IMG/VR virus record: IMGVR_UViG_3300030376_006438
Span: 1 to 49,979 of that record
DNA length: 49,979 bases
Source: a virus
Taxonomy: Duplodnaviria > Caudoviricetes
Direction: 5' to 3' (one strand)
The notes under the pieces were generated by a model. It saw only the letters and a program-made list of their open reading frames with translations. It was not told the DNA's origin and ran no database searches. This document shows, piece after piece, positions 3,824-41,296 of the stretch (its first letter is position 1; each line of letters starts with the position of its first letter). Position numbers and translations under genes: made by a program.

Positions 3824-5650
3824 ATGCCATTAGTAAATTTTAGACCAGCACCAGGTATCAATAAAGAAGTCACTGATTATACAGGTCAGGGTAAGTGGAC
3901 TGATGGTGATATGGTGCGTTTTTTTCAAGGATCTGCACAGAAAATCAAAGGTTGGCAAAAGTTCATAGCGACCACACTAGTGGGAGTAGCAAGGGACATG
4001 CACGCTTGGGTAGCTTTGGATGGAACTAGATACAATGCCATTGGCACAGATAGGAAATTATATGTATTAGAAGAGGGACTAGCTTACGATATCACGCCAA
4101 TAAGAAAAACTTCAGCTTTAACTAATCCTTTTACTACAAATGCAACAACCTCTGTAGTTGTCACAGACACAGGCCACGGTTGTGCAAAGGGAGATTTTGT
4201 TACTTTTGATTCTTTCTCAGCTATTGACGGTTTGGATATGAATAAAGAATTTGAAGTCACTAGTGTTCCTAACACTGCCGCTTATGTTGTTACACACACA
4301 TCAGCAGCTTCAGGTTCAACAGCTTCAGGTGGTGGCACAGGTAATGCGAAGTATCAAATATCAGTGGGTCCTGAATTATCAACACCAGCATTTGGTTGGG
4401 GTACTGATACTTGGGGAAGTGGTACATGGGGCACTCCTTCTACTACTTCGAACGTAACATTAGAAGCTAGACAATGGTCATTAGACAATTTTGGAGAAGA
4501 CTTAATAGCAACAGCATTAAACGGTGGAGCTTTTAAATGGGATACATCATTAGGTGTTTCAACAAGAGCAACAGCAATATCAGGAGCACCAACAGCTTCT
4601 AGATTAAGTTTGGTATCTACTCCTGATAGACATTTAGTTTTTATGGGAACAGAAAATACAATTGGAACAACTAGTTCACAAGATGATTTACTTATAAGAT
4701 TTTCTGATCAAGAAGATATAACAACGTATCAACCCACAGCAGAGAATACTGCTGGATCTTTAAGAATTGCAGACGGATCACGAATCGTGGCCGCTGAAAG
4801 ATCAAGAGGCCAAATACTTGTTTGGACAGATACTTCTTTACACGCCATGCAATTTATTGGTCCTCCTTTTACATTTGGGTTAAGACAATTGGGTCAGAAT
4901 TGTGGAGCCATTGGTAGTCATTCGGCTGTAGATATAAATGGCGTAAGCTATTGGATGTCACAGGATTCTTTCTTCCTATTCGATGGTTCGGTAAAAAAAT
5001 TACCATGTACTGTAGAACAGTTTGTATTCGACAATATTAATGTAACAGGTTCTGAAAATGCTTTTGCAGGACATAATGGAGAGTTTAACGAAATAATGTG
5101 GTTTTATCCTAGAACAGGATCAGATCAAATAAATGCAATAGTAGCTTATAATTATTTAGAGCAAACTTGGTGGACAGGAACTCTTGATAGAACCTCATGG
5201 ATTGATAGAGAAGTTTTTGATAACCCTGTTGGCACTGAGTATTTAGCAACGACAACAGCAAACAATGAGGTAATTTTGGGTTTAACTGATGGCGCAACTC
5301 AAGCTTTCTTCCATGAAACAGGAAATGATGCTGATGGTGAAGCGATAATTGCTTTTGTAAAATCTGGAGCAGTACAAATAGGAGAAGGTAATGATTTCTT
5401 GTTTGTACAAAAACTTATTCCTGACATACAAAATCAATCAGGTACACTTAATGCGAAACTTGAATTTAAGAATTATCCTAACAATAGCACAAGTGCTATT
5501 AAAACAGCTACTTTCACTGACTCCACTGAATTTGTTAGTCTACGTGGAAGAGGTAGAGAATTTACAGTTAATGTTGTTTCCAATACCACAGGTACTGCTT
5601 GGAGATTAGGAACACAACGTTTTGATATACAACCAGATGGAAGAAGATAA
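3824..5650 (+). CDS. tail/head-closure structural protein (P22 gp10-like stabilization/nozzle protein)
   Basis: 608 aa, Thr/Gly/Ser-rich beta-type sequence, WSLDNFGE, IRFSDQE, ends QPDGRR; position before ejection genes. Confidence 0.7.
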   Translation: MPLVNFRPAPGINKEVTDYTGQGKWTDGDMVRFFQGSAQKIKGWQKFIATTLVGVARDMHAWVALDGTRYNAIGTDRKLYVLEEGLAYDITPIRKTSALTNPFTTNATTSVVVTDTGHGCAKGDFVTFDSFSAIDGLDMNKEFEVTSVPNTAAYVVTHTSAASGSTASGGGTGNAKYQISVGPELSTPAFGWGTDTWGSGTWGTPSTTSNVTLEARQWSLDNFGEDLIATALNGGAFKWDTSLGVSTRATAISGAPTASRLSLVSTPDRHLVFMGTENTIGTTSSQDDLLIRFSDQEDITTYQPTAENTAGSLRIADGSRIVAAERSRGQILVWTDTSLHAMQFIGPPFTFGLRQLGQNCGAIGSHSAVDINGVSYWMSQDSFFLFDGSVKKLPCTVEQFVFDNINVTGSENAFAGHNGEFNEIMWFYPRTGSDQINAIVAYNYLEQTWWTGTLDRTSWIDREVFDNPVGTEYLATTTANNEVILGLTDGATQAFFHETGNDADGEAIIAFVKSGAVQIGEGNDFLFVQKLIPDIQNQSGTLNAKLEFKNYPNNSTSAIKTATFTDSTEFVSLRGRGREFTVNVVSNTTGTAWRLGTQRFDIQPDGRR

Positions 5651-5656
5651 AACTAC

Positions 5657-6418
5657 TTGAAACAAATTTGTTTTTGGGTTTCCTTGCCTAGATCAGGCAA
5701 TACAGTTCTAGCATCTATTTTAAATCAAAATAGAAAAATTGGATGCACACCTAATTCTATAGTATTTGAACTACTTCATAACATAAATGAAGCTAAAAAA
5801 ACCAAAGTGTTTATGAATTTTCCAGATCATGGTTCAGTGCAAAATGTATCAAAAAAAATCATACAAAATTATTATCAAGATTGGAAACAAGATATTATAA
5901 TAGATAGGAGTCCTGCCACTACTCCTAAAAATTTAGAATATTACGATTATCAAAACTATAAATATATTTTTCTTAAAAGAAGTTTAATAGAAATTGTAAA
6001 ATCTTTTATTGATTTATCTCTTAAAAATAACACTGAAAAACCTATTGAAAAAGTATATCAAGAAATAACCGATCCAAATACAATGCTACTTAGAAGTCTT
6101 TTAGCGTTAACAAATGGCTTAAAGAATATAGATAAAGAAAAATATATTTTAATAGATTACAACGACTTTGTAAAAAGTCCAAAAGACGTAATTGAAAAGA
6201 TTTACAAGTTTTTAAATATTGAATCATTTAATCATAACTTTGAGAATATTGATCAATTTTCTGTAAACGGAATGAAATATGATGATAGCATTCTTGGCTT
6301 TTACAATAATATACATAGGATAAACACTGAGTCTGTTACAAAAAGAAGCTATAACATTGAGCTACCACAGCACATAATTGATTTTTGTAGAAATTATGAA
6401 AACTTAATTATAGAATAG
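5657..6418 (+). CDS. sulfotransferase family protein
   Basis: N-terminal PAPS-binding loop LPRSGNT, IDRSP, YNDFV.SP. Confidence 0.8.
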   Translation: MKQICFWVSLPRSGNTVLASILNQNRKIGCTPNSIVFELLHNINEAKKTKVFMNFPDHGSVQNVSKKIIQNYYQDWKQDIIIDRSPATTPKNLEYYDYQNYKYIFLKRSLIEIVKSFIDLSLKNNTEKPIEKVYQEITDPNTMLLRSLLALTNGLKNIDKEKYILIDYNDFVKSPKDVIEKIYKFLNIESFNHNFENIDQFSVNGMKYDDSILGFYNNIHRINTESVTKRSYNIELPQHIIDFCRNYENLIIE

Positions 6419-6421
6419 CGT

Positions 6422-8177: not shown

Positions 8178-9224
8178 ATGCAAGAAAAGGAATACGCACA
8201 AGTTTATGAATTAGGTCTCGGATCGTTGGTCGGAGATTTCTTTCAAAATGTTAAGGACACTGTCACAGGTGTTGCTAAAGCCGTAGCTCCTATCGCTCCC
8301 TTTGTATTACCTTTTGTAGCTCCAGGAATTGGTAGCTTAGTGGGAGGAAAACTTGGATCTTTTTTAGCAAGTAAAGTTGGTCAAGCAGCATTAGGTGCTG
8401 GTATTCAAGGATTAGCAGGAAAAAAACCTGCTGACATAGCAAAAAATTTAGCTCTTCAAGTTGCAACTTCAGGTATTCGAGGAGTTTTAAAAGAAGATCA
8501 GGGAACTATAGGTCAAAAATTCATGAAGGGTTCTTTTGGAAAAGAAATACCACAAGTAGAAATACCTCAAGGTGGTGTAGGTGGTGGTGGAGGTGAAGGT
8601 GTAGACAAAGTTACTTTCATGGACAGATTAAAAAAACAATTTGATCCTAGATTAAGAACCGAAAATCCTAAATTTAATCAATTGAAAGCAGTAGGTATTC
8701 CTGAAGAAAAAATAATTGCTTCTGGTGTATCAAAAGAAGCTCCGTTTACCTATCAATATGGGCCATCTTTATATGCAGGTTTATCTGCCTTACCTTTAGC
8801 TGAACAATACTTAGGTCCTCAAGAAGGGGAAGTAGAACCTGAAACATCTCAAAATCTATATGCGATGAATCCATCTCAATATCAAATTGGCTCTGTTACA
8901 GGGTATAATCCTCAAGGATATTTTATGGCAGCAGAGGGTGGAGAAGTAACAGGTTTTGCAGAAGGTAGTGGCCAACGAATCGAGCACCCTGATGGTAAAG
9001 TAAAAGATCATCCTAAACGTATTGGAGAGATCGTGGGTCGTGGAACAGGGACCTCTGATGATATACCTGCAATGTTAAGTGATGGTGAATTTGTAATGAC
9101 TGCTCAAGCTGTTCGAAACGCTGGTGGTGGATCGAGAAAAGTGGGAGCAAAAAATATGTATAAAATGATGAAAAGTTTAGAAAATGGTGGTAGTTTATCA
9201 CAACAAAGCATAGGAATGGCATAA
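8178..9224 (+). CDS. internal virion/ejection protein
   Basis: Gly/Ala-rich hydrophobic N-part, MAAEGGEV, GTGTSDDIPAMLSDGEFV motif. Confidence 0.7.
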   Translation: MQEKEYAQVYELGLGSLVGDFFQNVKDTVTGVAKAVAPIAPFVLPFVAPGIGSLVGGKLGSFLASKVGQAALGAGIQGLAGKKPADIAKNLALQVATSGIRGVLKEDQGTIGQKFMKGSFGKEIPQVEIPQGGVGGGGGEGVDKVTFMDRLKKQFDPRLRTENPKFNQLKAVGIPEEKIIASGVSKEAPFTYQYGPSLYAGLSALPLAEQYLGPQEGEVEPETSQNLYAMNPSQYQIGSVTGYNPQGYFMAAEGGEVTGFAEGSGQRIEHPDGKVKDHPKRIGEIVGRGTGTSDDIPAMLSDGEFVMTAQAVRNAGGGSRKVGAKNMYKMMKSLENGGSLSQQSIGMA

Positions 9225-10282: not shown

Positions 10283-13281
10283 TGATGAATCAAGTTATGC
10301 AACGACCTTTGTTTAGACAACAGGGAAGCCCCATGGGTGGTGAACAAGCTTTTATGCAATATTTACAAACGAATTTGTCTCCTGAACAATTACAATCACT
10401 GATGCAAAACCCTAATAGAGATCAGATTATAGGTCAGCTATATCAAAAATTTATATCTGAACAACAAGTTCAATCTAGTCCTATAACAATGAGAAAAACA
10501 GGATCTCCTGAGATAGGTGAAAGAGTTTCTGATTTACAGTCTTTATTAACTGATATTAGAGCCAATGAAGGAATGAGAGATGTTATTGGTAATGAAGAAG
10601 CTGATAACGTGAGTAGACAGCTTGGTAATTTAATGAGAGTTCCTTTTGAGGAATTTAGTGGTATGTATGTTACAAACCCACAATCAGGTGAAATTGAACC
10701 TATGAGTGGTCCTTTAAAAGGTTCTCCTTCCATTGAAGAAGTTATATCTGATAAACCAAGAGGTAATATGGGTCAGTTTAGAATAAATTCAACAGGAGAA
10801 ACCGTTATATTAGAAATGACTCCTGAGCTTCAAGAAAGAGTCAGAAGTGGAGAGTTAGATTTTATCAAACAGCTTCCAACAAGAGCACCAATGGATGATC
10901 CTTCTACCTTAGACACTATTTTAAATTTAATAAATAGAGGAGGAGGTTCTATTGCTCCATTTATAGCTGATGTATTTACAAGCGATAGACCAAAACCCAC
11001 AAGACAACTTAATCCAAAATTTAGATATTATTTTGATAAAGATGGTAAGCCTCAAGTAGATATACGAGAACAAGCTGAAGGTGGTGAAATGAAGTCTGAT
11101 GCTGTTGGCATTGCTGATGGATTAGATCAAGAAGAACAGATGTCCGTGGACCGTGATCCGTCAAACGAGGGTATCGCTAAAGTTTCTCCTGAACAATATG
11201 TTGAATTAATGAATGAGGTTCGTGGAGACGAAGTTCCTATGGAAGGAAGAGTTCAAGAACTAGCAAGCGTTGTTGGTGAAAAAGATGCTACTGACACACC
11301 TTTATCTGTTCTAGCTTTAGTGCAACCTATTTTTGAAATGAAAGAACAGCAAGGTATTGCTCAAACTCAGCAAGGACAACAAATGATGACTCAAGGACCT
11401 ATTCCAATGGCTGCACAGGGTGGTATTGTACATTTGGCTAATGGACCTGGAGAAGACGGTGTTTATTCAGGAATGGTTGGTCCTCTTTCTTTAGATCAAA
11501 TACAAAACTTTGGTTTATATACTAAACCTGAAATGTCTGATTTAGGGGTGGCTTCTTATACAGCAGGAGCAGGAGATGTCTTAGCGTCAGGTTCACCTGA
11601 AGCAATTCTTACTCAATTATCAGGAATGGCAACAGAACCTCAAACTTTTGCTGAAATATTAGCAGATAAAAAAGCATCAATAGGTAAGCTTGGATTGTAT
11701 GACTCTCAAAAGGAGGCGCTTAAAATTCCTTTTCTTAGTGGAGTGACTAAGTTTGGTTTAGATGTTGCTAGAGGAGATAATGTTGTTGAATCAGCATTGG
11801 ATAGATTTAATGAAGCTACAAGCACTGCTCTACCAATGGCTTTAAAAATAAAATCACAAGAAAAACAATTACCTTTACAGCTAGCTTTAAGTGAATATTC
11901 ATCTCAAAAAGCTGATGCTAAAGAAATGAAAAAATTTGTTTTAGGTAAGTCTTTTGATTTAGCATTAGAAAATCAAAAAAATCAGGGTGTGGGAACCGTA
12001 GGAGTTGTAGGAACTAACAATGAAGTTATAGATAGTACTTTTGGTTCAGGTGTGTCTGAATCTCTTCCAGTCGGAACAATAGTTCAAAAAAATACTTCAG
12101 GAGTGATGTCCGTTATTAAGCCTGATAAGTTCAAAGCTGAAAATTTAATAACCGTAACAGGAACCTATGTAACCAATAAGTTAGATCAAGATGGTAGACC
12201 TATTGTAAAAGAAATAAACACTGTGATTGATCTAAGCACTGAAAGTGGAAAAGCTGAATTTGATACGTTAAAAGAGGCTTCTCAATTAAAAGCATCAAAA
12301 CTTATTTTTAAAAGTTTTTTAGATACGCAAAGTACAAATATAATACAAATGCCTGATCCCATTCTAGAGCCAAGAGCACAAGGTGGTGAAATAGTAAAAA
12401 GAGACAAGGGAACTGAGGATAATCCCATAGGTGGTGAAGTAGCAACAGATGGTGGACTTATTGATATAATGTCTGACGAAGCTTTTGCAGATTTAAATAT
12501 AGATCCTTTTGCTCCAGGACCTGGAAGAATAGATATAACTAAGTTGGATGGATCCAATAGAATATTAGGTCTTAGACACAATACAGGTTATGAAACACTT
12601 GCAGCAATAGAAGATTTAGTTGCAAGGACTTACACACAGCCTGAAACAGTGGGTGTTTTAGGTAATACATTAAGAGGATATGCTAACATATCTAATACCG
12701 TGGATGAACTTTTAACTCAATTAATTGGAAAAGGGTTACCTGAATCGTTAGTCCTCAATAATCCTGAACTTCAACAAACCTTAGAAGACATGATGAAAAT
12801 TCCTAAATTAGTAGCTGAGACAGAAGCAGGTGCTTCTAGATACAGAGCTGTTCAAAAAGACATAGATGCAATAGCTAAAGAAAGACTAGATTATGGAGCA
12901 CTAAGTTCAGCTTCTAGTATTAGAAAAAGTTTAATGGCTGTTCATAAAACTGTTTTTGATAAAATGAACACATACAGAGATAGTTTAGGTCAAGGATCGT
13001 TAGAGTATAAAAAGCCTGAAATATTTAATGAAGAATATGGAGCTACTTTAGCGCCTAAAGAGCCTATTAAGCTTCCTTCAAAAGAAGACTTTAGTGCAGA
13101 TAATTTACAAAGCACTTTATTGGATGCCCTTCCTAACATTGATTTAAAAAAATATCCTCAACTATTAACTGATCCTATTTTTACAGGAGCCATTTATTCT
13201 ATTAGTCAAGGAGCCACTGTTGAAGATATTAAACCAAAATTTTTAGAATTATTTAACGAGAAATACGGGACAGGGGAATAG
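10282..13281 (+). CDS. large internal virion/ejection protein
   Basis: 999 aa, RPLF start, repeated xxGGx[VIM] motifs. Confidence 0.7.
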   Translation: MMNQVMQRPLFRQQGSPMGGEQAFMQYLQTNLSPEQLQSLMQNPNRDQIIGQLYQKFISEQQVQSSPITMRKTGSPEIGERVSDLQSLLTDIRANEGMRDVIGNEEADNVSRQLGNLMRVPFEEFSGMYVTNPQSGEIEPMSGPLKGSPSIEEVISDKPRGNMGQFRINSTGETVILEMTPELQERVRSGELDFIKQLPTRAPMDDPSTLDTILNLINRGGGSIAPFIADVFTSDRPKPTRQLNPKFRYYFDKDGKPQVDIREQAEGGEMKSDAVGIADGLDQEEQMSVDRDPSNEGIAKVSPEQYVELMNEVRGDEVPMEGRVQELASVVGEKDATDTPLSVLALVQPIFEMKEQQGIAQTQQGQQMMTQGPIPMAAQGGIVHLANGPGEDGVYSGMVGPLSLDQIQNFGLYTKPEMSDLGVASYTAGAGDVLASGSPEAILTQLSGMATEPQTFAEILADKKASIGKLGLYDSQKEALKIPFLSGVTKFGLDVARGDNVVESALDRFNEATSTALPMALKIKSQEKQLPLQLALSEYSSQKADAKEMKKFVLGKSFDLALENQKNQGVGTVGVVGTNNEVIDSTFGSGVSESLPVGTIVQKNTSGVMSVIKPDKFKAENLITVTGTYVTNKLDQDGRPIVKEINTVIDLSTESGKAEFDTLKEASQLKASKLIFKSFLDTQSTNIIQMPDPILEPRAQGGEIVKRDKGTEDNPIGGEVATDGGLIDIMSDEAFADLNIDPFAPGPGRIDITKLDGSNRILGLRHNTGYETLAAIEDLVARTYTQPETVGVLGNTLRGYANISNTVDELLTQLIGKGLPESLVLNNPELQQTLEDMMKIPKLVAETEAGASRYRAVQKDIDAIAKERLDYGALSSASSIRKSLMAVHKTVFDKMNTYRDSLGQGSLEYKKPEIFNEEYGATLAPKEPIKLPSKEDFSADNLQSTLLDALPNIDLKKYPQLLTDPIFTGAIYSISQGATVEDIKPKFLELFNEKYGTGE

Positions 13282-18119: not shown

Positions 18120-18297
18120 TTTCTTCTCCTTTGATTACTTTTAAATTTACCTTTTTTTCTTGAGGAAGATAAACTTCAACGTAGCTGTCACAATTGGGAC
18201 AACTTAAATTTGTCACAATACAATATTCTTCATTATCTTCTTCGATATCATGATCACCACCCCAAATTAATTCGTAATTACAATGCCAACAATTCAT
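18103..18297 (-). CDS. small zinc-ribbon protein
   Basis: CWHC...CPNC; start at ATG 18297 overlapping polymerase stop. Confidence 0.75.
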   Translation of the reverse strand: MNCWHCNYELIWGGDHDIEEDNEEYCIVTNLSCPNCDSYVEVYLPQEKKVNLKVIKGEENENNL

Positions 18298-20174
18298 TTT
18301 GCTTCCCCCCAATTATTTCCTGTTGCTACATCTACTTTAGATGGAACACTCATTTCAATTGAATTTTCCATTACATTTACTATTTTTTCTTGCATTTCTT
18401 TATCTCCGTTAAAGCTTATGGCCAATTCATCATGAATCTGAATCATTGGTATTATGCCTTCTTTGTAAAGATTGACCATGGCTTTTTTTGTTTGATCTGC
18501 TGCTGATCCTTGTATCAATCTATTAAGAGCCTTATACGTCCCTGACCTTTTCAAAGGAGTATATTCTCCATATTCTTCCTTAGCTCTGTCTAAAGGATAA
18601 GCCCTATAAGAACCAAATGCCTTAGGCTCCCATAACTCAAAACGACATCTTCTACCTAAAAAAGTTTTAACTGCACCTTTTTTTTGAGCATGATCAGAAA
18701 CTGCATCAGCTAATTGTCTTACAAAAGGAACTCTTTCATTGTATTGTTTAATTAACGATTTACCCTCCTCAGGATCAATTCCTAATTGATCGGATAACTT
18801 ACCCACACCCATGCCATAAAATAGTCCTAAATTTATCGTTTTAGCGCTTTTACGAGGTATATTTCCTATCTCAGCCATGATTGTATGAAAGTCTGTGGTT
18901 TTATCTTCATTATAAGCTTTAACGATTTTTTCAGCCCCCTCCAATTTAACTATATTAGCATAGTGACTAACGAGACGTGGCTCTTGTTGTGAATAGTCGA
19001 AAGAACCCCATTGCTCTCCTTCTTCAGGTAAAAATAAACCTCTGATTAAAGAACCTATTTTTATATCAGAATTAGCATCATCTTTAGCAGGAATTTGTTG
19101 AAGGTTGGGATTAGAATAACTAAATCTCCCTGTCAAAGTACCACCGTTCTCGGTTCGTAACTGATTGACGTTAGCATGTATTCTACCTTTATGTTGATAT
19201 CTTTCTATCGTATGGAGGAACGTGGTCCGTGCTTTGTTAAAGTTTCTAGCTTGAACAATTGCTTTTGGAATAGGATGAGGATGAAACTCTAAAAAGTTTT
19301 TTGTAAAAGAAGGATTACCTTTATCTGTTTTAGGATAATCTATTTTACAATGATCAAAGATAGTAGCAATGGAACGAGCAGCCCATATATCACATTTTAA
19401 ATTAGTCTCACCAAAAACGTATTTTAAAAGTTCATTCTCTTTTTTTATAAAAGACTTTTCTGCTTTCTTTAATTTTTCTAAATCTACTCTTACACCTTTT
19501 TTTCTCATCTTCATCAAGATAGGAATTAAATCAGTTTCTAAATTAAATACTGTTTCCAAATCTTGTTGTGATATTTCAGGTTTTAATCTGTTCCATAATT
19601 TTAGAGACAAAACAGCGTCTTGCTCTGCGTATTCTCCTACATACTGAGAAGGTATTTTAAACATTTCACTCTTAGGATTCACACCCCATTGTGCTGCAGT
19701 TTCGTTTAATAAAAACTCACTTTTACTTTCAGCTAAATATTCTTTAGAAACTGCGTTCAGAGAATAACTAAATTTATTCTCATTAATCAAAGGAGCAACG
19801 ATCATTGTATCAATGATACGACCATTCCACTTAACTCCTTCAGCTTCTAACCAACCAAAATCATAGGTGGCATTGTGAGCTATTTTCTCTCCCTCTCCTG
19901 AGAGCATTTCATTTAGCCAATCAAACACGACCCGTGAATCGTGATTAAATCCTGTCTCATGTCTAATAGGATAATATCCCTTCCAACCATCAACAGCTAT
20001 GGCAACTCCAATTATTTCTCCATCATTGGTGGCCCAACCTGGGCCTTTCTCCATGATGTTAGGATCTTTAGTTTCTAAATCAATTGCAATTTTATCAGCG
20101 TCTTTAATGTTAGGGAAATCCATAGGTGGAACCCATTCAGATTTTGGTTTGAACATACCAATTTGTTTACTCAT
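18294..20174 (-). CDS. DNA polymerase family A with 3'-5' exonuclease domain
   Basis: DLET, HNATYD, TGRFS..PNLQQIP, DYSQQEPR (motif A), KTINLGLFYG (B), QIHDE (C). Confidence 0.95.
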   Translation of the reverse strand: MSKQIGMFKPKSEWVPPMDFPNIKDADKIAIDLETKDPNIMEKGPGWATNDGEIIGVAIAVDGWKGYYPIRHETGFNHDSRVVFDWLNEMLSGEGEKIAHNATYDFGWLEAEGVKWNGRIIDTMIVAPLINENKFSYSLNAVSKEYLAESKSEFLLNETAAQWGVNPKSEMFKIPSQYVGEYAEQDAVLSLKLWNRLKPEISQQDLETVFNLETDLIPILMKMRKKGVRVDLEKLKKAEKSFIKKENELLKYVFGETNLKCDIWAARSIATIFDHCKIDYPKTDKGNPSFTKNFLEFHPHPIPKAIVQARNFNKARTTFLHTIERYQHKGRIHANVNQLRTENGGTLTGRFSYSNPNLQQIPAKDDANSDIKIGSLIRGLFLPEEGEQWGSFDYSQQEPRLVSHYANIVKLEGAEKIVKAYNEDKTTDFHTIMAEIGNIPRKSAKTINLGLFYGMGVGKLSDQLGIDPEEGKSLIKQYNERVPFVRQLADAVSDHAQKKGAVKTFLGRRCRFELWEPKAFGSYRAYPLDRAKEEYGEYTPLKRSGTYKALNRLIQGSAADQTKKAMVNLYKEGIIPMIQIHDELAISFNGDKEMQEKIVNVMENSIEMSVPSKVDVATGNNWGEAK

Positions 20175-24412: not shown

Positions 24413-24436
24413 AATTCCTCACAATAATAGCTTTTT

Positions 24437-24516
24437 GCTGAGGCACGACCCGAAAGGAGGCCGGAAAAAATCGCACCTCAGCTTTGAAGACGAAAAAATA
24501 AAGAAAACGTCTTCAA
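24437..24516 (-). promoter_or_regulatory. two intergenic RNA hairpins, one with an anti-SD loop
   Basis: 13-bp stem with three G-U pairs on minus strand (24437-24482) enclosing CCUCCUUU; 9-bp stem 24484-24516. Confidence 0.65.
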
Positions 24517-24528
24517 TTTACGCGGCTA

Positions 24529-25356
24529 TTAGAATGGTATATCACCACTCTGCGAGGACTCCCCTTGCGGGGAACTTGTTTCATCTGACTGAGGAGCAAC
24601 TTTTAACTCCCCACTGTGAATACTTTTTTCGAATTGAGTTGCGTCAGCTAAAATGTCCTCAATTTTAACTAATCCTAATTCGTCAATCCATTTATTTTGA
24701 TTGATAGCCCAACCATGCCAACTTCCCTGATCATTTTTTTCAGGTTTACCTGACAGGTCATATGCCATTGCAAAATCCTTAGGCTGATAAATCTCATCAC
24801 CGTCTACACGTCTTTGATTTGACATGATTGAATTCCACTGCCTTGACTTTTTAAGTTGTGAACCCTTCATTTTTATTAGGGCCTTATACCAACTCTGACC
24901 ATCGATAACGATAACATAATGTTCAGCAGTGTTTTCTACATAAGAATCACCTTTACCTACAAAGCGATCTTTCTTATCATCACCACGAACAATTTTACCT
25001 TGCTTTTGAAAAGTTTGAAACTCTTCAGGAGTGAATTCATTTACAGGGGACTTATTTTTAGTTCTGTCATTATACCACTCCACGTATCGTCTTCTATAAT
25101 AAACAGGCAACACTGTTAATACATCACTACAAACCTCTGTAACTGTATTAAATATTTGTCCCTTTTTAGCTTCTTTTATATATTTTTCATTCTCCTCATC
25201 TACTTGAGGTGAACCCTTACTTAGCATATTTAAATAAGGTATTGAGTAATCATCAGCATCTCTTTTTGAAAGTGGAGCTGATCTTAATATCGCACTTACT
25301 TGTGCAACTTCTTTTTTTTCGCTTTTCGCTACTTGCTTTTTTACTGTCTCTGTCAT
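24529..25356 (-). CDS. putative single-stranded DNA-binding protein
   Basis: Replication operon, aromatic-rich, acidic tail ending GDIPF as in SSBs. Confidence 0.65.
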   Translation of the reverse strand: MTETVKKQVAKSEKKEVAQVSAILRSAPLSKRDADDYSIPYLNMLSKGSPQVDEENEKYIKEAKKGQIFNTVTEVCSDVLTVLPVYYRRRYVEWYNDRTKNKSPVNEFTPEEFQTFQKQGKIVRGDDKKDRFVGKGDSYVENTAEHYVIVIDGQSWYKALIKMKGSQLKKSRQWNSIMSNQRRVDGDEIYQPKDFAMAYDLSGKPEKNDQGSWHGWAINQNKWIDELGLVKIEDILADATQFEKSIHSGELKVAPQSDETSSPQGESSQSGDIPF

Positions 25357-25899
25357 TTATTTACCTTTCTTGATATTGACTTTGTGTCCTACAAAAACTC
25401 CAAAAGTTTCCATAGGAAGTTCTTTTCCACTCTCAATAAGTTCACGAATGAAACCTCTTAGAGTAGAAGGTTCGACTTTAACATTTCTGTCAGTATCGAG
25501 CCCTTGGTTAGCTAAGTCTGAAAAAAGTTTTTTTGCTTTATCATCTTCAGCTCTACCAAACTTTACTATGACTTGGTTTTTAATCAAGTCCTCATATCCA
25601 TTATCTCGAAGCCATGCAAAAGCTTCTACTTGTCTGTCTTTAGATATTGTTCCTGTATAAAATGGTTTTATTTCTACATTAGAACCGTCTCTCATTTTAA
25701 TTGAAGTGACACCACGCTCTTCAAATAATTGAACTAGATTTTCATTTGCTCTACGTAAAGCTTCTTTTTTAACTTTAAGTAAAGCCTCTAAGTCCTCAAC
25801 TTCTTTTTCAGCTTTCAAATAATCTTGAGAGCCTTTTGAAATAGGGTCTACTTCAGTTACTTGAAAATCTTTCTCGTCTCGTCTTAAATTAATAGCCAT
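25357..25899 (-). CDS. conserved replication-module protein
   Basis: Coiled-coil N-half, AFAWLRDNG..DLIK, VEPSTL; AAGGAG SD. Confidence 0.7.
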   Translation of the reverse strand: MAINLRRDEKDFQVTEVDPISKGSQDYLKAEKEVEDLEALLKVKKEALRRANENLVQLFEERGVTSIKMRDGSNVEIKPFYTGTISKDRQVEAFAWLRDNGYEDLIKNQVIVKFGRAEDDKAKKLFSDLANQGLDTDRNVKVEPSTLRGFIRELIESGKELPMETFGVFVGHKVNIKKGK

Positions 25900-25920
25900 A
25901 TTTATTCTCCTTTTTTATTC

Positions 25921-26268
25921 TTAGTTATAAATGTCAACTCTGATAGGAAAGTAATCTTTTTCTATCCTATCGTATTTTAACATATTATATCTACCATTAG
26001 ATATAGTACTAACAACTGAGCATGTCAACCCAATCAAGGCGGGATCTCCAACTAAAAGTAAATAATCGTTGTCTTTAAAGTCTTTTAGAAGAGATTTGAG
26101 TTTTCTAATTGTTGGTTGTGGAGACATTACAACTTGCTTGCTTCCGTCAAACAAAAATATAACTTCTCCAAATCTTTCTGCTTGACTGTAATCTAGTGAT
26201 CTTAGTGTTCCGTCAGGATATTTTCTAAGTACGTTTTGAATAACATACACTTTACTTTTTTGTATCAT
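25921..26268 (-). CDS. conserved hypothetical protein
   Basis: VYVIQ, DYLLLVGDP. Confidence 0.7.
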   Translation of the reverse strand: MIQKSKVYVIQNVLRKYPDGTLRSLDYSQAERFGEVIFLFDGSKQVVMSPQPTIRKLKSLLKDFKDNDYLLLVGDPALIGLTCSVVSTISNGRYNMLKYDRIEKDYFPIRVDIYN

Positions 26269-28839: not shown

Positions 28840-29192
28840 AAAATTTTTTAAATAAAAAACATTTAGTAGGGTCAACCTCAGAATATTCAGCTACAATAAA
28901 ATTATTAGAGCTAGGTTTTTTAGTTTTTAAAAATGTTTCTTCTCATGGAATAATTGATCTAATGGCAATATCTCCTAACAACGAAACTTTTAGAATTGAT
29001 GTTAAAACTGCTTCAAAGAGAATTAGTAGTATTAAAACTTCAAATGGTTCTTACAGAAGAAGTGGAGAAATGATATACAGGGTCCCCACTAAAGAACAAA
29101 AAATATATAATGTTGTATTGATGATCGTGAACCGTGATAAATTTAAAATTATTCCTACTCGTTCTAAACTAGCAAAATGGTTAAAGACCTAG
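28836..29192 (+). CDS. PD-(D/E)XK nuclease (Hjc-like)
   Basis: G..SE, IDLMA, IDVK. Confidence 0.7.
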   Translation: MKNFLNKKHLVGSTSEYSATIKLLELGFLVFKNVSSHGIIDLMAISPNNETFRIDVKTASKRISSIKTSNGSYRRSGEMIYRVPTKEQKIYNVVLMIVNRDKFKIIPTRSKLAKWLKT

Positions 29193-29900: not shown

Positions 29901-30065
29901 CTAAACTTTTTGTAATTTATCGTAATATTCTTTAACAATCATGTGTAATTGAGTAGGTTTTGTTCTCATCGTGTCTTTACATATTCTTTCTAATAGAGTT
30001 TGAGTATCTCTAGACATTATCTGTGACACCCATTTTTGAGCGTCTTTTTTTGTTGTTTTAGTCAT
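29901..30065 (-). CDS. putative ribbon-helix-helix DNA-binding protein (54 aa)
   Basis: Read by hand: MTKTTKKDAQKWVSQIMSRDTQTLLERICKDTMRTKPTQLHMIVKEYYDKLQKV; strand-helix-helix pattern; AAAGGA SD. Confidence 0.55.
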   Translation of the reverse strand: MTKTTKKDAQKWVSQIMSRDTQTLLERICKDTMRTKPTQLHMIVKEYYDKLQKV

Positions 30066-31366: not shown

Positions 31367-31540
31367 CTAGCCTTTGACCGTTAATCGTGAATTAGCTTTA
31401 AGTCTTCTTAAATAAAGCTTATTGTTGATGTTCCATTCTTTTTTATCAAGAATAGTTTTAACTTCTTTCAAACTAATATTGTGATAGTCAATAACGTTTT
31501 CTATCCAACCATTTGAAAGTGCTTTCTTTTTTGCTTCCAT
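31367..31540 (-). CDS. hypothetical protein
   Basis: Start moved to ATG 31540 after GGGAG SD. Confidence 0.6.
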   Translation of the reverse strand: MEAKKKALSNGWIENVIDYHNISLKEVKTILDKKEWNINNKLYLRRLKANSRLTVKG

Positions 31541-34924: not shown

Positions 34925-35386
34925 TTAGAATGAGGGGTCCCAATATTCGGACCGTTGACCGAGGCCAACATGAGTTCCCTCTTTCCTAAAACGATTAGTC
35001 TTAGGATTAAAGGACCTAGGCTCTAAGATAAAGCCTAGCTGACCGTCTTCGGTTTCGATATCGATAACCTCGGAGATAAACTTCCTACCCTTAGGGTTGG
35101 GAGTAAATTCATAAGTCTGACTTTCTGAAAAGCCATTCTTATCGGTACGCTTTGCGTGGTCCTGTTGAACCACCACATAGCGTTTTTTATTACGGTTGAT
35201 GATTTCAACAACCGTACAGGCATGGCGATCTGACCAAAAATAGGCTGTCGCACCGTTGCCAATGGTTAAGGCATCGTGTGGATACCATGTTTGGGAAGCA
35301 ATCCAATTGTTAACGCTTCCAAACTGTGTGCCTAGTTTATTTGGCAACAGTTTTTGTTTTTTATCGATTATTCTAATGTTTGTCAT
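34925..35386 (-). CDS. conserved hypothetical early protein
   Basis: GATAYFWSDRHACTV, GQRSEYWDPSF. Confidence 0.8.
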   Translation of the reverse strand: MTNIRIIDKKQKLLPNKLGTQFGSVNNWIASQTWYPHDALTIGNGATAYFWSDRHACTVVEIINRNKKRYVVVQQDHAKRTDKNGFSESQTYEFTPNPKGRKFISEVIDIETEDGQLGFILEPRSFNPKTNRFRKEGTHVGLGQRSEYWDPSF

Positions 35387-35408
35387 TTTTTTGCTCTCTT
35401 TCTGTATT

Positions 35409-35460
35409 TGAATATATAAATATTCATGATTACTCAGAGCGAGTAATCAAAAGTATTTAT
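35409..35460 (-). repeat. intergenic processing-type hairpin, copy C
   Basis: ATAAATACTT-T-TGATTACTC-GCTCT-GAGTAATCA-T-GAATATTTAT then ATATTCA. Confidence 0.8.
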
Positions 35461-35663: not shown

Positions 35664-35678
35664 TTTTTGCTCTCTTTC

Positions 35679-35731
35679 TGAATATTTGTAAATATTCAAG
35701 ATAACCCAAAACGAGTTATCTAAAATATTTA
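35679..35731 (-). repeat. intergenic processing-type hairpin, copy B
   Basis: TAAATATTT-T-AGATAACTC-GTTTT-GGGTTATCT-T-GAATATTTA then CAAATATTCA. Confidence 0.8.
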
Positions 35732-36253
35732 TGCTGACTGTTCAGCTTGTTTTTTAGAAATAAGATAAAGTCTGTCGATAAGTCTATTCTTCCACTTACT
35801 GAGTAATTTACCTTCTAAGTTAAACGCCTCGATTTCCCAAGGTCGTTGTCTGTAAGGAATGCGTCTCTTTGGGCCTAGTTCTTTACCCTCCCAACGTGTG
35901 TGGAGTTCGCCATCAGATTTCCACCAACGTTGTTGATATTGCTTTGTTGCAATTTGTTTAACGTGAACTAATTCGTGAGCCAAAGTTTCAAAAATATCAG
36001 ACTCACTATGAATAATAATTTTATGATCTTTATCAGGGTCAGAACCTTTTGCGTTGGCTAAGTGAACACCTTCACAATTTTGACCCCACTTCTTTTTGAC
36101 TGTGGTCCTTCTTACGTGGATTTTGATCTTCAAAGTGTTCTGAAGTCTTTTAGATACTAACTCACCAAGAAAAAGTTTAGTGGCCTCTGTGAGGTCATTA
36201 ACCAATTCTTGATCTCTCTCATTTCTTGGTAGAGATATTTCTAGTTTTTTCAT
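35729..36253 (-). CDS. zincin-like metallopeptidase
   Basis: TLAHELVHVKQ (HExxH), PWEIEA; start ATG 36253 after AAAAGGAG. Confidence 0.85.
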   Translation of the reverse strand: MKKLEISLPRNERDQELVNDLTEATKLFLGELVSKRLQNTLKIKIHVRRTTVKKKWGQNCEGVHLANAKGSDPDKDHKIIIHSESDIFETLAHELVHVKQIATKQYQQRWWKSDGELHTRWEGKELGPKRRIPYRQRPWEIEAFNLEGKLLSKWKNRLIDRLYLISKKQAEQSA

Positions 36254-36268
36254 CGTTTGCTCCTTTTC

Positions 36269-36324
36269 TGAATGCTTATGCATTCATAATAAGGCCAACT
36301 AAGTGACCTTATTAAAAATACATA
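36269..36324 (-). repeat. intergenic processing-type hairpin, copy A
   Basis: TATGTATTT-T-TAATAAGGTC-ACTTAGTT-GGCCTTATTA-T-GAATGCATA then AGCATTCA. Confidence 0.8.
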
Positions 36325-36329
36325 AAGAT

Positions 36330-36650
36330 TATTGTTTGACTGTTTCCTTATCGGTGTCACCGATTGAACTCATTGTTCGCAGACTACCTCTTACTTGTTG
36401 AGTTATCTGTGCACTGAGGGGCAAATATATAGGGCCCAACCTCAGCAACCCACAAGGACCTCAAGAAGAGGCTACCCCCAAATTTAATTGGTTAAGTGTT
36501 TTAGCACCTTAGATCTGATCGACTCCGAATTCTTGGGTCCGACTAGAATATCGTGGGCATTAGACCTACCCTCAAATGAGGCGCTTGGCTTATTGTCTTC
36601 TAGTGCAGTTTCTAAAGTATGGTTTGTCATTGTGTGTACCTTACACTAAT
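36330..36650 (-). ncRNA. candidate structured RNA/leader (may include a 48-aa ORF at 36484..36630)
   Basis: GC-enriched island with dense hairpins including a ~100-nt irregular rod (CCTCTT/AAGAGG, TTGAG/CTCAA, TGTG/CACA, CTGAGG/CCTCAG, GGGC/GCCC). Confidence 0.5.
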
Positions 36651-36659
36651 TTAAGATAT

Positions 36660-37210
36660 TACCTAATAAAAAATGATAAATAATGATAAATAATTAAAAA
36701 AAATGGTCATAAATTATTACAATCGAAAAGTTATCCACAGGCATTTTTTTGCGTTTTTAGAGCGTTTTAAAAAGGTCCGTGTATGATTTTATATGATAAT
36801 TTATTATATGCTCTATGGCTCTTAAAATGGATTTAAAGGGTATTTTTTTTATGAGAAGTTGTTATATTTTATTGCAAATTGCGACAGGGACCGTTGACCG
36901 TGAACAAAGTACGAACAAAATTAATCTAGTTAAGCTAGTAAAAACTAAATCGGATTAATCAGATTAATAGACACACAATCACAGTACTTAGGTTTTTTTG
37001 AAAAAATAAAAATAAAAATAAAAAATATTTTAAAAGAAGTGTGATAGTGTCCGCTTAACGGTTTTAACTTTAATTAGGTGGGTTTTACCCATCACACTTC
37101 TCATTTTTAGTAGTGTGTATAGTGTGATAGGTGGTCATTGATTTTACTGACTTTTTTGACCTCCTAGGTAATTGAACCCTTTTTCCAAATTGATTATTTT
37201 AAAAGAAGTT
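36660..37210. other. putative replication origin / terminus-proximal control region
   Basis: Non-coding, strand switch, DnaA box TTATCCACA 36731-36739, AATGATAAAT x2, A-tracts, AGTGTGAT iterons, TATTTTAAAAGAAGT x2 (37026, 37195). Confidence 0.5.
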
Positions 37211-37272
37211 ATGGAAAATTCTCTAGTACCAAATTGATTAAATATCTGTAATATGTAACGGTCTAATTTTGA

Positions 37273-37665
37273 ATGAGTGCTGAAAAGAATTTATATAAAA
37301 TGGTGAAGGAAAAGCTTAGCGACTTTAATCCAATTCGTATTGAAACTACTACAATAAACGGTTTCCCTGATTTAATTTTGTTTAACAAATTTGGACGTAG
37401 TTTGTTCGTTGAATGTAAGGCTTGTGAGCGTTCTAGATTGTTACAAAGTTTAAGGCCACACCAAAAAGCATTTCATCACAAATACAAACATATTACGAAC
37501 GGACTGTTTATCTTACAAAGGTCCCTCAAAGAGAGGGCCTTTTTTCTGTATAGATCGAAGGATATCGACTTTTTGTCAGAAAACGTTGAAAACGAACCAC
37601 TTTGCACGGTCCACGTGGGCCAACCATGGTCCTCGATCAGCGAAATTTTGAACCATGACCACTAG
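37273..37665 (+). CDS. PD-(D/E)XK nuclease (VRR-NUC/resolvase-like)
   Basis: E, RIE, GFPDL, FVECK, LRPHQ. Confidence 0.8.
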   Translation: MSAEKNLYKMVKEKLSDFNPIRIETTTINGFPDLILFNKFGRSLFVECKACERSRLLQSLRPHQKAFHHKYKHITNGLFILQRSLKERAFFLYRSKDIDFLSENVENEPLCTVHVGQPWSSISEILNHDH

Positions 37666-37877: not shown

Positions 37878-39347
37878 ATGCACATAGACTATTCAAAACT
37901 CGATTCTAATCAATTAAAGGCGATGGTATTGCTTAGAAAGAAGATCGAACAAGAGCATGCACGTGGTAATTTCATGCGATTTGTTAAATCTATGTGGCCT
38001 GAGTTTGTAGAAGGACCACATCACATTAAGATTGCAGAAAAATTTCAAAAGTTTTTGACAGGAAAGAATCAAAGGCTCATTGTGAACATGCCTCCACGTC
38101 ACACAAAAAGTGAGTTCGCCTCATTTTTATTCCCGGCATGGATGATAGGGCAAAATCCCCGGCTAAAAATTATTCAAGCGACTCACACAGGTGAACTTGC
38201 TATTCGATTTGGTAGAAAAGTTAGAAACTTAATGAACACTAGAGAGTATCGAGGAGTATTTCCTGATGTAACGTTAAGAACTGATAACCAAGCAGCAGGA
38301 AGATGGGAGACTAACCTCGGAGGTGAGTATTTTGCGGCAGGTGTTGGTGGTGCAATCACAGGTCGTGGTGCTGATTTATTAATTATTGATGATCCACACT
38401 CAGAACAAGATGCTTTGTCTGAAACAGCCATGGATAATGCCTATGAATGGTACACATCAGGACCTAGACAGCGTATGCAACCTGGAGGGAGCATTGTAAT
38501 TGTTATGACTCGTTGGTCTGACAAGGATCTAACAGGCCATTTGATAAAAAAAATGGGAGATCTGAAAGCAGACAAGTGGGACATCATAGAATTCCCGGCA
38601 ATTTTAGATGATGATGACGAAAAGAAGAGAAAACCTATTTGGCCACAGTATTGGAAGCTAAATGAGCTCGATAAGGTTAAAGCTTCTCTTGTTCCCACCA
38701 AGTGGAGCGCACAATGGCAACAAAATCCTACTCATGACGGTACTAGTATCATTAAACGTGAATGGTGGAACATTTGGCAAAAGGAAGATCCACCTGAATG
38801 TGCCTATACCATACAAAGTTATGATACTGCGTTTTCAAAAAAGGAGTCTGCTGACTATTCAGCTATTACAACTTGGGGAGTATTCTATCCTAATGAAGGA
38901 AATGAGACTCATTTGATACTTTTGAACGCTAAAAAAGGTCGTTGGGATTTTCCTGAGCTAAAACAAGTAGCAAAGGAACAACTTCAGGTCTATAAGCCTG
39001 ATAGTGTTATAATTGAAGCCAAAGCATCAGGGACACCCTTGATACAGGAGCTCAGGCGATTTGGAGTATACGCTCAAGCTTTCTCTCCTAACCGTGGTAT
39101 GGATAAACATGTTAGATTAAATTCTGTGTCTCCTATTTTTGAAGCAGGTCATGTTTGGAGAACGGAGCACGATTGGGCTGAAGAAGTTCAAGAAGAGTTA
39201 GCATCTTTTCCTTATGGAGAGCACGATGATCTTGTTGACGCAACCACCTTAGCACTGTTAAGATACAGGCAGGGAAGCTTTATTTCTTTGCACGATGACG
39301 AAGATGACATGGAGCCAAGGGAAAAACGAACATATGAATACTACTAA
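37878..39347 (+). CDS. terL: terminase large subunit
   Basis: MPPRHTKS (Walker A), LIIDDPH (Walker B), MTRW, SYDTA, IEAKASG, HDDLVDA. Confidence 0.95.
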   Translation: MHIDYSKLDSNQLKAMVLLRKKIEQEHARGNFMRFVKSMWPEFVEGPHHIKIAEKFQKFLTGKNQRLIVNMPPRHTKSEFASFLFPAWMIGQNPRLKIIQATHTGELAIRFGRKVRNLMNTREYRGVFPDVTLRTDNQAAGRWETNLGGEYFAAGVGGAITGRGADLLIIDDPHSEQDALSETAMDNAYEWYTSGPRQRMQPGGSIVIVMTRWSDKDLTGHLIKKMGDLKADKWDIIEFPAILDDDDEKKRKPIWPQYWKLNELDKVKASLVPTKWSAQWQQNPTHDGTSIIKREWWNIWQKEDPPECAYTIQSYDTAFSKKESADYSAITTWGVFYPNEGNETHLILLNAKKGRWDFPELKQVAKEQLQVYKPDSVIIEAKASGTPLIQELRRFGVYAQAFSPNRGMDKHVRLNSVSPIFEAGHVWRTEHDWAEEVQEELASFPYGEHDDLVDATTLALLRYRQGSFISLHDDEDDMEPREKRTYEYY

Positions 39348-39861
39348 AAAATTAATCAATCCTGATGACAGGAGACTAAAGCAAAAATTAACACCGAAGC
39401 AGATGATTTTTGTTTATGAGTACGTTCATAAAGTTCTTCTCGGAGAATGTTCCGCTGCCGAAGCAGCACGGAAAGCGGGCTATTCAATAAACCGTGCACG
39501 TCAGACTGCTACTGATCTAATGAATCCTCACTTAAATCCTTTCGTAGTGGAGGCTATTAATGAGATGAAACAAGATCTGCATCAAATGTATGGAGTGTCT
39601 ACTGCATCTCATTTGGCCTCCTTAAAACAAATCAGAGAGGAAGCAAGAGAACATAAACACTATTCGGCGGCCGTGGCTGCTGAAGTTAATAGAGGTAAGG
39701 TTGCTGGCTTTTACGATAACAAGGTTCAAAGCGACACTCCTCTAGAAAATATGAGTAAAGACGAATTAATAAAAGTTTTAGAGAACTACGATAAGCATGG
39801 CATCACCCATGATACAAAATTAATTATTGATGACGATAAAGATGTGATGACAGGCAACTAA
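39334..39861 (+). CDS. terS: terminase small subunit
   Basis: LTPKQMIFVYEY...AAEAARKAGYS HTH, AAVAAE..RGK..G.Y. Confidence 0.75.
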   Translation: MNTTKKLINPDDRRLKQKLTPKQMIFVYEYVHKVLLGECSAAEAARKAGYSINRARQTATDLMNPHLNPFVVEAINEMKQDLHQMYGVSTASHLASLKQIREEAREHKHYSAAVAAEVNRGKVAGFYDNKVQSDTPLENMSKDELIKVLENYDKHGITHDTKLIIDDDKDVMTGN

Positions 39862-39862
39862 G

Positions 39863-41296
39863 ATGATTCAGTATGTTACTAATCCCGCGATCCTCGGTCC
39901 GTTGCTCGTGGCCACTGTGGGAGCTCAACAAGCTAGTCAGATACAACGAGGCTTGGCTCTCGGTGATATAACTTTAGATGATGTATACAATATCATCGAA
40001 AATTTTGCGGCGCCAAATGCACTCAACTTTTTAAAAGATTTAGATAAGTCTAATAACTTATCACCAAAAAAAGATGACGAAGATCCAAAGACACCTGACA
40101 ATGATCCATTGGACTTGCTCAACCTTATAAATACTGATAGAAAGGAAGAAGATGAAACAAAGCCTATTACAACTAGCCAAAGCGAAGAGACAAAAGAATC
40201 AGTCTCGTCCAATCTCGAATCGCAAACCACGGACCGTGGATCAGGCATACAGCAATCTAACCAAGGAAGAGAAACAACGGTTAGTGGCGAACTACCTCTA
40301 GTCAAAGCTTCTCAAGAACAAGGCGTTACTTTCTTTTCTGATATAATAGATGGAGAGTTTCAACTTCCCAAAAGTAAATATTCACAATTAGTAGATACCT
40401 CTGACGCTTTGGAGGCAACAGAGATCTTCGATGAGAAGAGAGTAGGTAATTTTGAAAATCATATCTACACTTCCATTCCTGTTTTTAAAGAAGCTCAGAT
40501 TGCTACTGCAAACGCTATAGCCAAGACTCTTCCTAAAGGAGGAACTATTATTGATATTGGAGGAACTGAAGGTGGTTTTATTAATACAATAGCAGAGCTT
40601 AATCCTAATATAGAGGGTATCGTTTTAGATCCTAATCCTAGAGCTGAACAATCTTTTTTAAATCAGAACCTTCCTAACACAGAATTTATTCGTGAAGCGT
40701 TTACAACTAATCCTGAAGAGTTTGGTAAATACGCTATGACAGAAAGAGGAGTAGATATCAACTACTTTGATCCTAATGAGATTCCTGATAATTCTGTTGA
40801 TGCTTTTTCAGAGAAAATGGTATTTCAATTTATTGATAACGAGAGAGCTTCTAAAGTTAAATTAATTGCTGACAAACTAACAGATACTGGTTTTGCTGTC
40901 TTTGAAGAAAAATTTTTTACATCGAAACAAGATCCTGTGTGGAATGCCAATGAGGCAAAGAAGAATGAATTTAAATCTCAATACTATGATCCTGAACAAA
41001 TGACTGAAAAAGAAGAAGTTGTTTTGACAGGTATGAATGAGAGACAGGTGACTTCTGAATCTTTTGAAAAAATACTCATGAATAACTTTAATAATGTAGT
41101 TCAGTATTGGGATTCAGGAAACTTTGGAGGATACGTTGTCTCTGACAGCGCAGATACAATTACAAAATTTTTAGATAATATGGTGGATCTTAACAGTGAC
41201 TTTTCTAATGTGGAAACTCCTAGATATGTAACGCCTAAAATAGACAAAAAGAAAAGAGGAGGACCTATTTCTATTCCAAAAATAGACATGTTGTAA
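39863..41296 (+). CDS. CmoA-like SAM-binding domain with low-complexity N-terminal extension
   Basis: FDEKRVGNFENHIYTSIP, IDIGGTEG, VFQFID..R, FEEKF, GNFG align by eye with CmoA; C-terminal KKRGGPI. Confidence 0.7.
   Translation: MIQYVTNPAILGPLLVATVGAQQASQIQRGLALGDITLDDVYNIIENFAAPNALNFLKDLDKSNNLSPKKDDEDPKTPDNDPLDLLNLINTDRKEEDETKPITTSQSEETKESVSSNLESQTTDRGSGIQQSNQGRETTVSGELPLVKASQEQGVTFFSDIIDGEFQLPKSKYSQLVDTSDALEATEIFDEKRVGNFENHIYTSIPVFKEAQIATANAIAKTLPKGGTIIDIGGTEGGFINTIAELNPNIEGIVLDPNPRAEQSFLNQNLPNTEFIREAFTTNPEEFGKYAMTERGVDINYFDPNEIPDNSVDAFSEKMVFQFIDNERASKVKLIADKLTDTGFAVFEEKFFTSKQDPVWNANEAKKNEFKSQYYDPEQMTEKEEVVLTGMNERQVTSESFEKILMNNFNNVVQYWDSGNFGGYVVSDSADTITKFLDNMVDLNSDFSNVETPRYVTPKIDKKKRGGPISIPKIDML

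Follow-up and report, generated by a model that had tools for sequence, protein, structure and literature searches.

The DNA studied here, IMG/VR record IMGVR_UViG_3300030376_006438, is a single virus record of 49,979 bp, and this whole stretch is called the window. It bears short tandem arrays of a 7-bp motif (heptads), which in the HTVC023P-type phages form a conserved DNA signal that is phage-specific and strand-polarised. The genome has a GC content of 34.4% and an observed/expected CpG ratio of 0.58. Judged by its core gene set and the best matches of polA, the helicases, the terminase and GroES, the window phage belongs to the HTVC023P-type phages. The closest relatives of its TerL, polA and capsid are HTVC023P, HTVC027P, 023Pt_psg01 and DSL-LC04, with protein identities of 57-61%, 48-51% and 70-75%, respectively. 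Since the related genomes run to 57-61 kb, the window is short of about 8 kb. Family capsid genes were found on 20-62 kb contigs of five Pelagibacteraceae single-cell genomes (L565, L580, L584, L585 and L598), which supports SAR11 hosts for the marine members.

The left part of the window holds plus-strand genes for 2-oxoglutarate oxygenases, the tail stabiliser, an ejection block and a lysozyme. These are followed on the minus strand by polA, a UvrD-like helicase, an AEP primase and Pam3 gp32-34-like genes, then by SNF2 on the plus strand and by small minus-strand genes. After a non-coding stretch, the resolvase, terL, terS, portal and capsid genes lie on the plus strand. Relative to HTVC023P, across 17700-37300 the SNF2-polA block is inverted and the early genes are reversed, with terS relocated behind terL. 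The following features are needed below:

18294..26268, minus strand: replication operon (gp32-34-like genes, AEP primase, UvrD-like helicase, polA); the motif polarity follows its strand
29901..30065, minus strand: 54-aa predicted ribbon-helix-helix (RHH) protein, candidate reader of the motif
36284..37272, no strand: non-coding region containing AT-rich tracts as well as short direct repeats, a candidate origin or promoter region
37273..37665, plus strand: resolvase-like gene bearing the counter-oriented array
37878..39347, plus strand: terminase large subunit (terL)
39295..39861, plus strand: terminase small subunit (terS) with an SF6/SPP1-type helix-turn-helix (HTH), rival reader

The heptad unit is roughly (G/A)N(C/T)CGTG and stands in two to four copies, frequently with a degenerate third copy. 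An earlier note on this DNA had quoted 14 such strings, and all 14 were present where it had placed them. CGT..CGT pairs at a lag of 7 bp occurred 13 times in the window, compared with 1.0 at phase-matched lags. The tandem heptads exceeded the counts of 300 synonymous-codon shuffles of the window, as the note had expected. The pattern CGTNNNNCGT was found 13 times on the plus strand (null 1.87 +/- 1.25, maximum 7) and 3 times on the minus strand (null 2.33), and YCGTKNNYCGTK, i.e. two to four copies of NNYCGTK, 8 times on the plus strand (null 0.15, maximum 2) and once on the minus strand (null 0.17). These patterns were picked after viewing the quoted examples, and it was the relatives that provided an independent test. 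Lag 7 stood out in five genomes from separate clades, with 25 pairs against a null of 3.4 (maximum 6, 40 shuffles). Lag 14 was marginal (9 against 3.6, null maximum 8), and none of the other lags from 5 to 22 rose above the null maximum. Tandem Repeats Finder missed the motif in the window. Head-to-head YCGTK/MACGR pairs at lag 13 numbered 11 in five clade representatives (null 4.0, maximum 8, 15 shuffles), an excess that may be chance among 22 cells.

The orientation of the arrays is indifferent to the strand of the genes. The window lineage (95 loci and genomes) has 22 site clusters, 18 on the plus and 4 on the minus strand, and the 18 plus clusters are distributed over plus genes (8), minus genes (7) and non-coding DNA (3). 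The sites in the prevailing sense, here called polar sites, were on the coding strand in 13 cases and on the template strand in 11. Together with the excess over codon shuffles, the indifference of the site clusters to gene strand bears out the proposal that the motif is a DNA-level and not a protein motif. The strand bias of single k-mers mirrors the coding strand and was rejected as a polarity signal.

When the quoted sites were aligned one by one with their relatives, nine of the 14 were well conserved (the site at 31376 with few covering loci); a weaker site in polA is listed with them:

11142..11162, plus strand: polar trimer in the 999-aa ejection-block gene (coding strand), kept where the relatives' protein is only 31-37% identical
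18973..18986, plus strand: weaker polar dimer where polA encodes the conserved segment QQEPR, in part protein-driven
19218..19231, plus strand: polar dimer in polA (template strand), codons 316-318 invariant in 41/41 orthologues
19930..19943, plus strand: polar dimer in polA (template strand), codons 78, 82 and 83 invariant in 41/41
24273..24293, plus strand: polar trimer in the AEP primase gene
29123..29136, plus strand: coding-strand polar dimer, 3' end of a PD-(D/E)XK-like gene
31376..31389, plus strand: polar dimer in a small minus-strand gene, 5 loci
36889..36902, plus strand: polar dimer within the long non-coding stretch (20 distinct versions in 33 loci)
37591..37618, minus strand: counter-oriented array of four heptads at the 3' end of the resolvase gene, 260 bp ahead of terL, equivalents in 9/13 near-complete genomes
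39890..39910, plus strand: polar array right after terS, in the first codons of a 477-aa gene, 37 loci, 15 distinct versions

The remaining quoted sites were poorly conserved or partly driven by the encoded protein:

4772..4785, minus strand: counter-oriented dimer in the tail stabiliser gene (quoted at 4773), perhaps a relic, and in part accounted for by the peptide DGSRIVA
8214..8234, plus strand: poorly conserved site
9029..9042, plus strand: dimer kept in 2/30 aligned loci, partly peptide-driven
34950..34963, plus strand: weak, poorly conserved site
40211..40245, plus strand: degenerate array, partially conserved

The best-kept coding-strand site lies in the first codons of the 477-aa gene (39863-41296). 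This gene, between terS and portal, encodes a methyltransferase-like domain (phrog_4752).

Selection on synonymous positions was analysed in polA. From 79 loci, 72 were full-length and ungapped and 60 of these distinct; the 41 with at least 90% identity, the window included, were used. We tested 73 two- or four-fold columns with an invariant residue and a G/C-ending majority codon, which had on average 3.25 changes on the tree. Only 6 of the 73 were unchanging, codons 78, 82, 83, 316, 317 and 318, and all 6 lie in or beside the sites at 19218 and 19930. They include rare codons, e.g. CGG, which makes up 5.5% of Arg, and at 19930..19943 the 41 orthologues varied only at motif-tolerant positions. 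The expected conservation at synonymous positions was thus seen in polA of the window clade and was missing from polA of the HTVC023P clade (see below), and codon-level constraint holds for one gene in one clade. These alignments support purifying selection on the heptad signal at the DNA level. In HTVC023P, polA codons 270-277 (L001:5795-5818) contain four G/C-ending codons that are frozen in 21/21 clade sequences; this is a separate cis element with no heptad site.

The same core was found in HTVC023P on the minus strand, with 7 CACG pairs at lag 7 against 0. We then counted distinct CGTG lag-7 contexts on the template and coding strands of polA. The template:coding ratio was 27:0 in the window clade (53 loci), 72:6 in the HTVC023P clade (64 loci) and 10:3 in a distant group (16 loci). 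CGTG pairs were scarce in a sister clade of 72-79% identity (1:0, 26 loci) and in the HTVC027P clade (0:1, 80 loci), and psg01 showed a weak heptad signal. The HTVC027P clade instead has long NNGCTTG arrays of variable copy number on the coding-sense strand. These arrays (L083:16500-17740; HTVC027P-like L483-L543) flank an oppositely oriented gp33-like gene of about 200 aa, like the arms of a cassette. In a freshwater clade (80 loci), YCGTK pairs gave 88:17, with controls of 9-28 and 3-22. Compared with terL, portal and capsid, the replication block of the window lineage is turned round, and the polarity has turned with it, including that of the array before terL. We conclude that the polarity follows the replication block, with the motif on the strand opposite to the replication operon, whatever the strand of the head genes. 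Since codon accessibility is nearly equal in the window (20 coding, 25 template) and DSL-LC04 (31, 32), it does not explain the polarity in these two.

Nine outgroup phages that share only the replication or only the packaging/head module gave no clear signal, with R5C (5/5) and PSA28 (6 CGTG pairs against 2.8) being marginal. A lag-7 GAGAT signal in the siphophages Barton, Kokobel2 and PSA28 proved unrelated, being a ribosome-binding site plus ATG at gene starts. The doubled GAGAT terminates within the start codon of about 8-10 genes in each genome (Barton L379-L381, Kokobel2 L376-L378, PSA28 L382-L384), which suggests a shared translation signal. A first scan of prokaryote genomes for the heptad motif gave no finds. 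In about 5.0 Mb of SAR11 DNA from five single-cell assemblies, which may not represent the window's host, 15 dimers matched (lag-10 control 8), 5 of them on contigs numbered as phage-bearing nodes; the window itself has 9 in 50 kb. The heptad dimer is at background level in SAR11 DNA, and this weakens the suggested analogy with the host signals Chi and KOPS.

The layout along the genome was analysed with a heptad matrix run over 19 genomes. The matrix was trained on template-strand dimers of family loci and is not independent for polarity. Thirteen near-complete genomes were counted, and because of their kinship nominal P values would overstate the significance. The segment from portal to tail stabiliser, which includes the head and tail-fibre genes, was avoided, with 8 of 83 polar sites where 31.8 were expected by length. 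About 40% of the genome is thus spared, and the arrays are less than the genome-wide signal that had been proposed. The counter-oriented sites were concentrated in the last 4.5 kb before terL (25 of 39, 3.0 expected), and the best counter-oriented array lay before terL in 9 of the 13 genomes, in 5 of those 240-550 bp upstream. Segment counts against 25 shuffles concurred in three lineage groups; the freshwater counter-oriented excess was slight (8, null maximum 7). CpG is not scarce in the gap from portal to tail. The marking of bidirectional replication, which needs a counter-oriented excess in the gap, was rejected since the same shuffles of the three groups showed none. Temporal class was rejected as the cause of the gap, as late genes flank it on both sides.

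The earlier note had named the RHH protein and TerS as possible readers. The accessible part of PMC9499535 reports that Omega, the ParB of pSM19035, binds contiguous 7-bp repeats, one weakly and two strongly, and direct and inverted heptads alike. In an atlas comparison, the look-alikes of the window RHH protein were RHH/Arc/CopG clusters at 0.92-0.93. Its homodimer model scored 0.53 (best control 0.01), against a mark that 20/30 solved pairs and 1/23 single chains reached. The dimer runs agreed in at least 96% of contacts, with a predicted local distance difference test score (pLDDT) of at least 74, and paired residues 13-17 antiparallel, like an RHH ribbon. Since RHH dimers are textbook structures, this pass shows likeness. 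The monomer model gave no fold match, and with Pfam RHH_1 the psg01 homologue was below the cut-off and the window protein without a match. Of 14 marine family genomes, 13 carry the gene, the 14th being without the region, and so do 3 of 5 freshwater genomes (DSL-LC04, G019 and G022); it was not detected in G020 and G021, the two with a weak motif. When 54 usable freshwater loci of the 80 were collapsed to 28 clusters, the median density of heptad dimers per 10 kb was 1.83 with the RHH gene (16 clusters) and 0.69 without (12 clusters). The HTVC023P homologue is gp13; in HTVC027P, the homologue gp21 is a middle gene that peaks at 9 h, ahead of polA at 12 h (PMC12753301, in the part available). 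With its homologues in most of the family, its look-alikes, the dimer model and the freshwater association, the predicted RHH protein has become the best candidate. We give about even chances that it is the reader; it would bind cooperatively, one dimer per 7 bp. The case for TerS has weakened. The window TerS matches the SF6 small terminase (monomer model pLDDT 52), and the HTH of SF6-type TerS binds DNA almost regardless of its sequence, occupies 3-6 bp and recurs on the ring at intervals of about one turn, according to the accessible part of PMC4737164. The 7-bp period therefore fits TerS poorly.

As a tentative explanation, somewhat doubtful as a whole, we favour that the arrays are bound by the predicted RHH protein and direct DNA replication. 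RHH dimers would bind cooperatively to the arrays. Loading would take place at the counter-oriented array, which adjoins an AT-rich stretch, and the dispersed dimers would act as points of reloading or priming in the same sense, keeping the fork running with early and middle transcription. Given a protein reader, this division of roles between the two kinds of sites has a reasonable chance of being correct, though a little less than even. Whatever uses the sites must be sensitive to their direction. A co-directional fork would be favoured because the polarity follows the early and replication genes. The gap from portal to tail may have arisen because bound protein is costly in the operon of the very highly expressed capsid gene. 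The capsid reaches 74,585 transcripts per million, compared with 2,225-4,151 for terL, portal, tail stabiliser and gp83 (PMC12753301 Table S3, as far as accessible). No other model appears to account for the extent over half a genome. It is possible, still in a tentative sense, that the phage encodes a KOPS-like guidance system built on a reader of the plasmid-centromere type.

Several observations weigh against RHH-guided replication. Lagging-strand sites should span the whole genome, yet about 40% of it is avoided; priming sites would agree with the one-strandedness of CGTG and of the freshwater YCGTK pairs but not with this partial coverage. An RHH reader alone leaves the polarity unexplained because Omega binds direct and inverted heptads alike and a symmetric dimer has no need of polarity, and the binding of the RHH protein to the heptads is a prediction from the association of gene and motif. 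The freshwater contrast comes down essentially to a single split between clades. The freshwater clade that lacks RHH still has a polar signal, though a weaker one (16 template, 1 coding), and in L402, the densest freshwater locus, no RHH gene was detected. The RHH strand diverges among clades that share CGTG (KWVSQI, KWKSVA, PWVTLT), the gene is also present in the weak-signal clades (the 72-79% sister clade, psg01, HTVC027P), and one RHH match was found in the motif-free MinM2. No heptad pairs were found within 180 bp upstream of the RHH gene (0/6 genomes checked). Codon accessibility in HTVC023P is itself skewed (13 coding, 32 template). In polA of the HTVC023P clade (21 sequences, 34 columns), the test applied above gave 5 frozen columns, none in a heptad site. 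The four-fold-site skew showed no clear fork direction, and the spacing of the sites was no more regular than random (P = 0.23).

The position of the counter-oriented sites can also be explained by DNA packaging. The array before terL would then be a pac-like start whose reader is TerS or, acting as a specificity adaptor, the RHH protein; the sites scattered elsewhere would be marks of self DNA or secondary starts. The accumulation of counter-oriented sites before terL, the background level in SAR11 DNA and the restriction of TerS homologues in the phage collection to the four family members are in line with this, and an adaptor would be useful since an SF6-type TerS has little sequence preference (PMC4737164, accessible part). 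Only the counter-oriented array adjoins the terminase genes, as a pac site should, whereas in the window lineage the polarity is reversed with respect to terL, portal and capsid, and the orientation of TerS varies independently of the motif. The HTH site size and spacing cited above are unlike 7, and MinM2 and CRP-901, which share the head module, lack the signal. We consider packaging unlikely, though it deserves attention. Transcription control is likewise improbable. RHH proteins are usually repressors, and here one would use the arrays as operators and orientation-dependent, stoperator-like roadblocks, shutting early and middle transcription and stopping read-through. Several sites lie between genes or where genes begin (36891, 36317, 39859), the long arrays of the HTVC027P-like clade flank their small oppositely oriented gene on its template strand, and the gap spans the most expressed operon; according to the available part of PMC12753301, HTVC027P gp21 peaks while the early genes fall. 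A roadblock rule for the template strand was rejected, however, since the polar sites of the window lineage divide almost evenly between the strands. The arrays of HTVC023P, G011, DSL-LC04, G019 and G022 are in the same sense as the adjoining annotated or long genes, and tail stabiliser, gp83 and terL are late genes, yet they have sites in their regions family-wide.

Direct recognition without an RHH protein would make the arrays priming sites of the AEP primase, or a Chi-like signal at which the UvrD-like helicase, SNF2 or the resolvase would stop or load, e.g. in circularisation. An enzyme that tracks one strand naturally requires polarity, the polarity follows the replication block and a weak signal persists where RHH was not detected. 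This is nevertheless rather improbable, as outgroups with a related primase, helicase and polA (ct3Et533, Kokobel2, Barton) show no comparable signal and R5C and PSA28 are at most marginal, and a strict 7-bp repeat of up to 12 copies would better suit a cooperative double-strand binder. The most remote explanation is that of neutral heptamer microsatellites from polymerase slippage or a by-product of protein sequence. Bacterial heptameric repeats are over-abundant (PMC4692102 and PMC4679880, in the parts available), the NNGCTTG arrays differ in copy number, and the sites at 4773, 9029 and 18973 are partly peptide-driven. Such an origin is very hard to reconcile with the frozen rare codons within polA, the counts above codon shuffles, a fixed core with degenerate spacer bases and a polarity that is fixed across clades with about 50% polA identity.

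Other features of these genomes were observed alongside. AT-rich tracts followed by short direct repeats, possible origin iterons, were found at 36990-37130 in the window (TAGTGTGA-like) and at L001:11640-11790 in HTVC023P (CTAGGAAA-like). A gene for an ATPase and GNAT fusion (21759-22856) is inserted between primase and helicase, a perfect (TTC)10 repeat lies within a small minus-strand gene (34079-34109) and a conserved 82-aa protein is encoded at 28591. No solved structural relative of the AEP primase was found.

Whatever the mechanism, the cis signal is real: selected and polarised, it extends through much of the family, keeps a reproducible layout and has a plausible reader. The cultured HTVC023P and HTVC027P thereby offer a defined conserved signal, a candidate reader that can be named and, ahead of terL, a candidate control locus, and because of this the start of replication or packaging and the discrimination of self from host DNA become directly testable. 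The arrays are also an example of DNA-level constraint overprinted on coding sequence, and of an apparent re-polarisation of a signal after inversion. We found no account of these phage heptads in the literature, subscription papers being outside the coverage. The accessible parts of the family papers (PMC9599517, bioRxiv 2019.12.14.876532, PMC10611076, PMC12753301) do not describe them and use "repeat" for curli alone.

The closest known system is Omega/parS, which likewise has at least two contiguous non-palindromic 7-bp repeats and an RHH dimer as reader, predicted in our case (PMC9499535, accessible part). The core differs, and the phage sites are mostly intragenic dimers over about 30 kb with one polarity. 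The parS arrays of Omega have 7-10 repeats of mixed orientation that overlap promoters, whereas the phage arrays are not at the candidate reader's own promoter in the six genomes checked. A ParA Walker ATPase partner was not found by Pfam among the 68 open reading frames of the window, which lacks roughly 8 kb present in relatives. The stoperators of the temperate mycobacteriophage L5 are single asymmetric 13-mers oriented by transcription. They share with the heptads that many asymmetric sites are spread over a phage genome and are read by one phage protein, here a candidate, but the heptads are tandem, oriented by genome block and found in lytic phages. Chi, KOPS and Ter/RTP are host-encoded polar motifs whose polarity switches at origin and terminus. 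The heptads are similarly dispersed and strand-polarised and would orient a DNA-tracking enzyme; unlike these motifs, they are tandem, at background in SAR11 DNA and limited to part of the genome, with a counter-oriented cluster in one place. T7 has terminal heptamer arrays at its genome ends. Like these and the pac boxes of SPP1/SF6 (PMC4737164, in the part accessible), the phage heptads are direct repeats beside terminase genes or genome ends, but the known examples are confined to one locus, and SF6 TerS has no preference for the boxes. The heptameric simple repeats of Xanthomonas, Nostoc and Beggiatoa have the same period of 7, and the long arrays of the HTVC027P clade, bracketing a small gene, resemble them. 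They are mainly intergenic, whereas the phage sites are mostly intragenic dimers with codon-level constraint in one gene.

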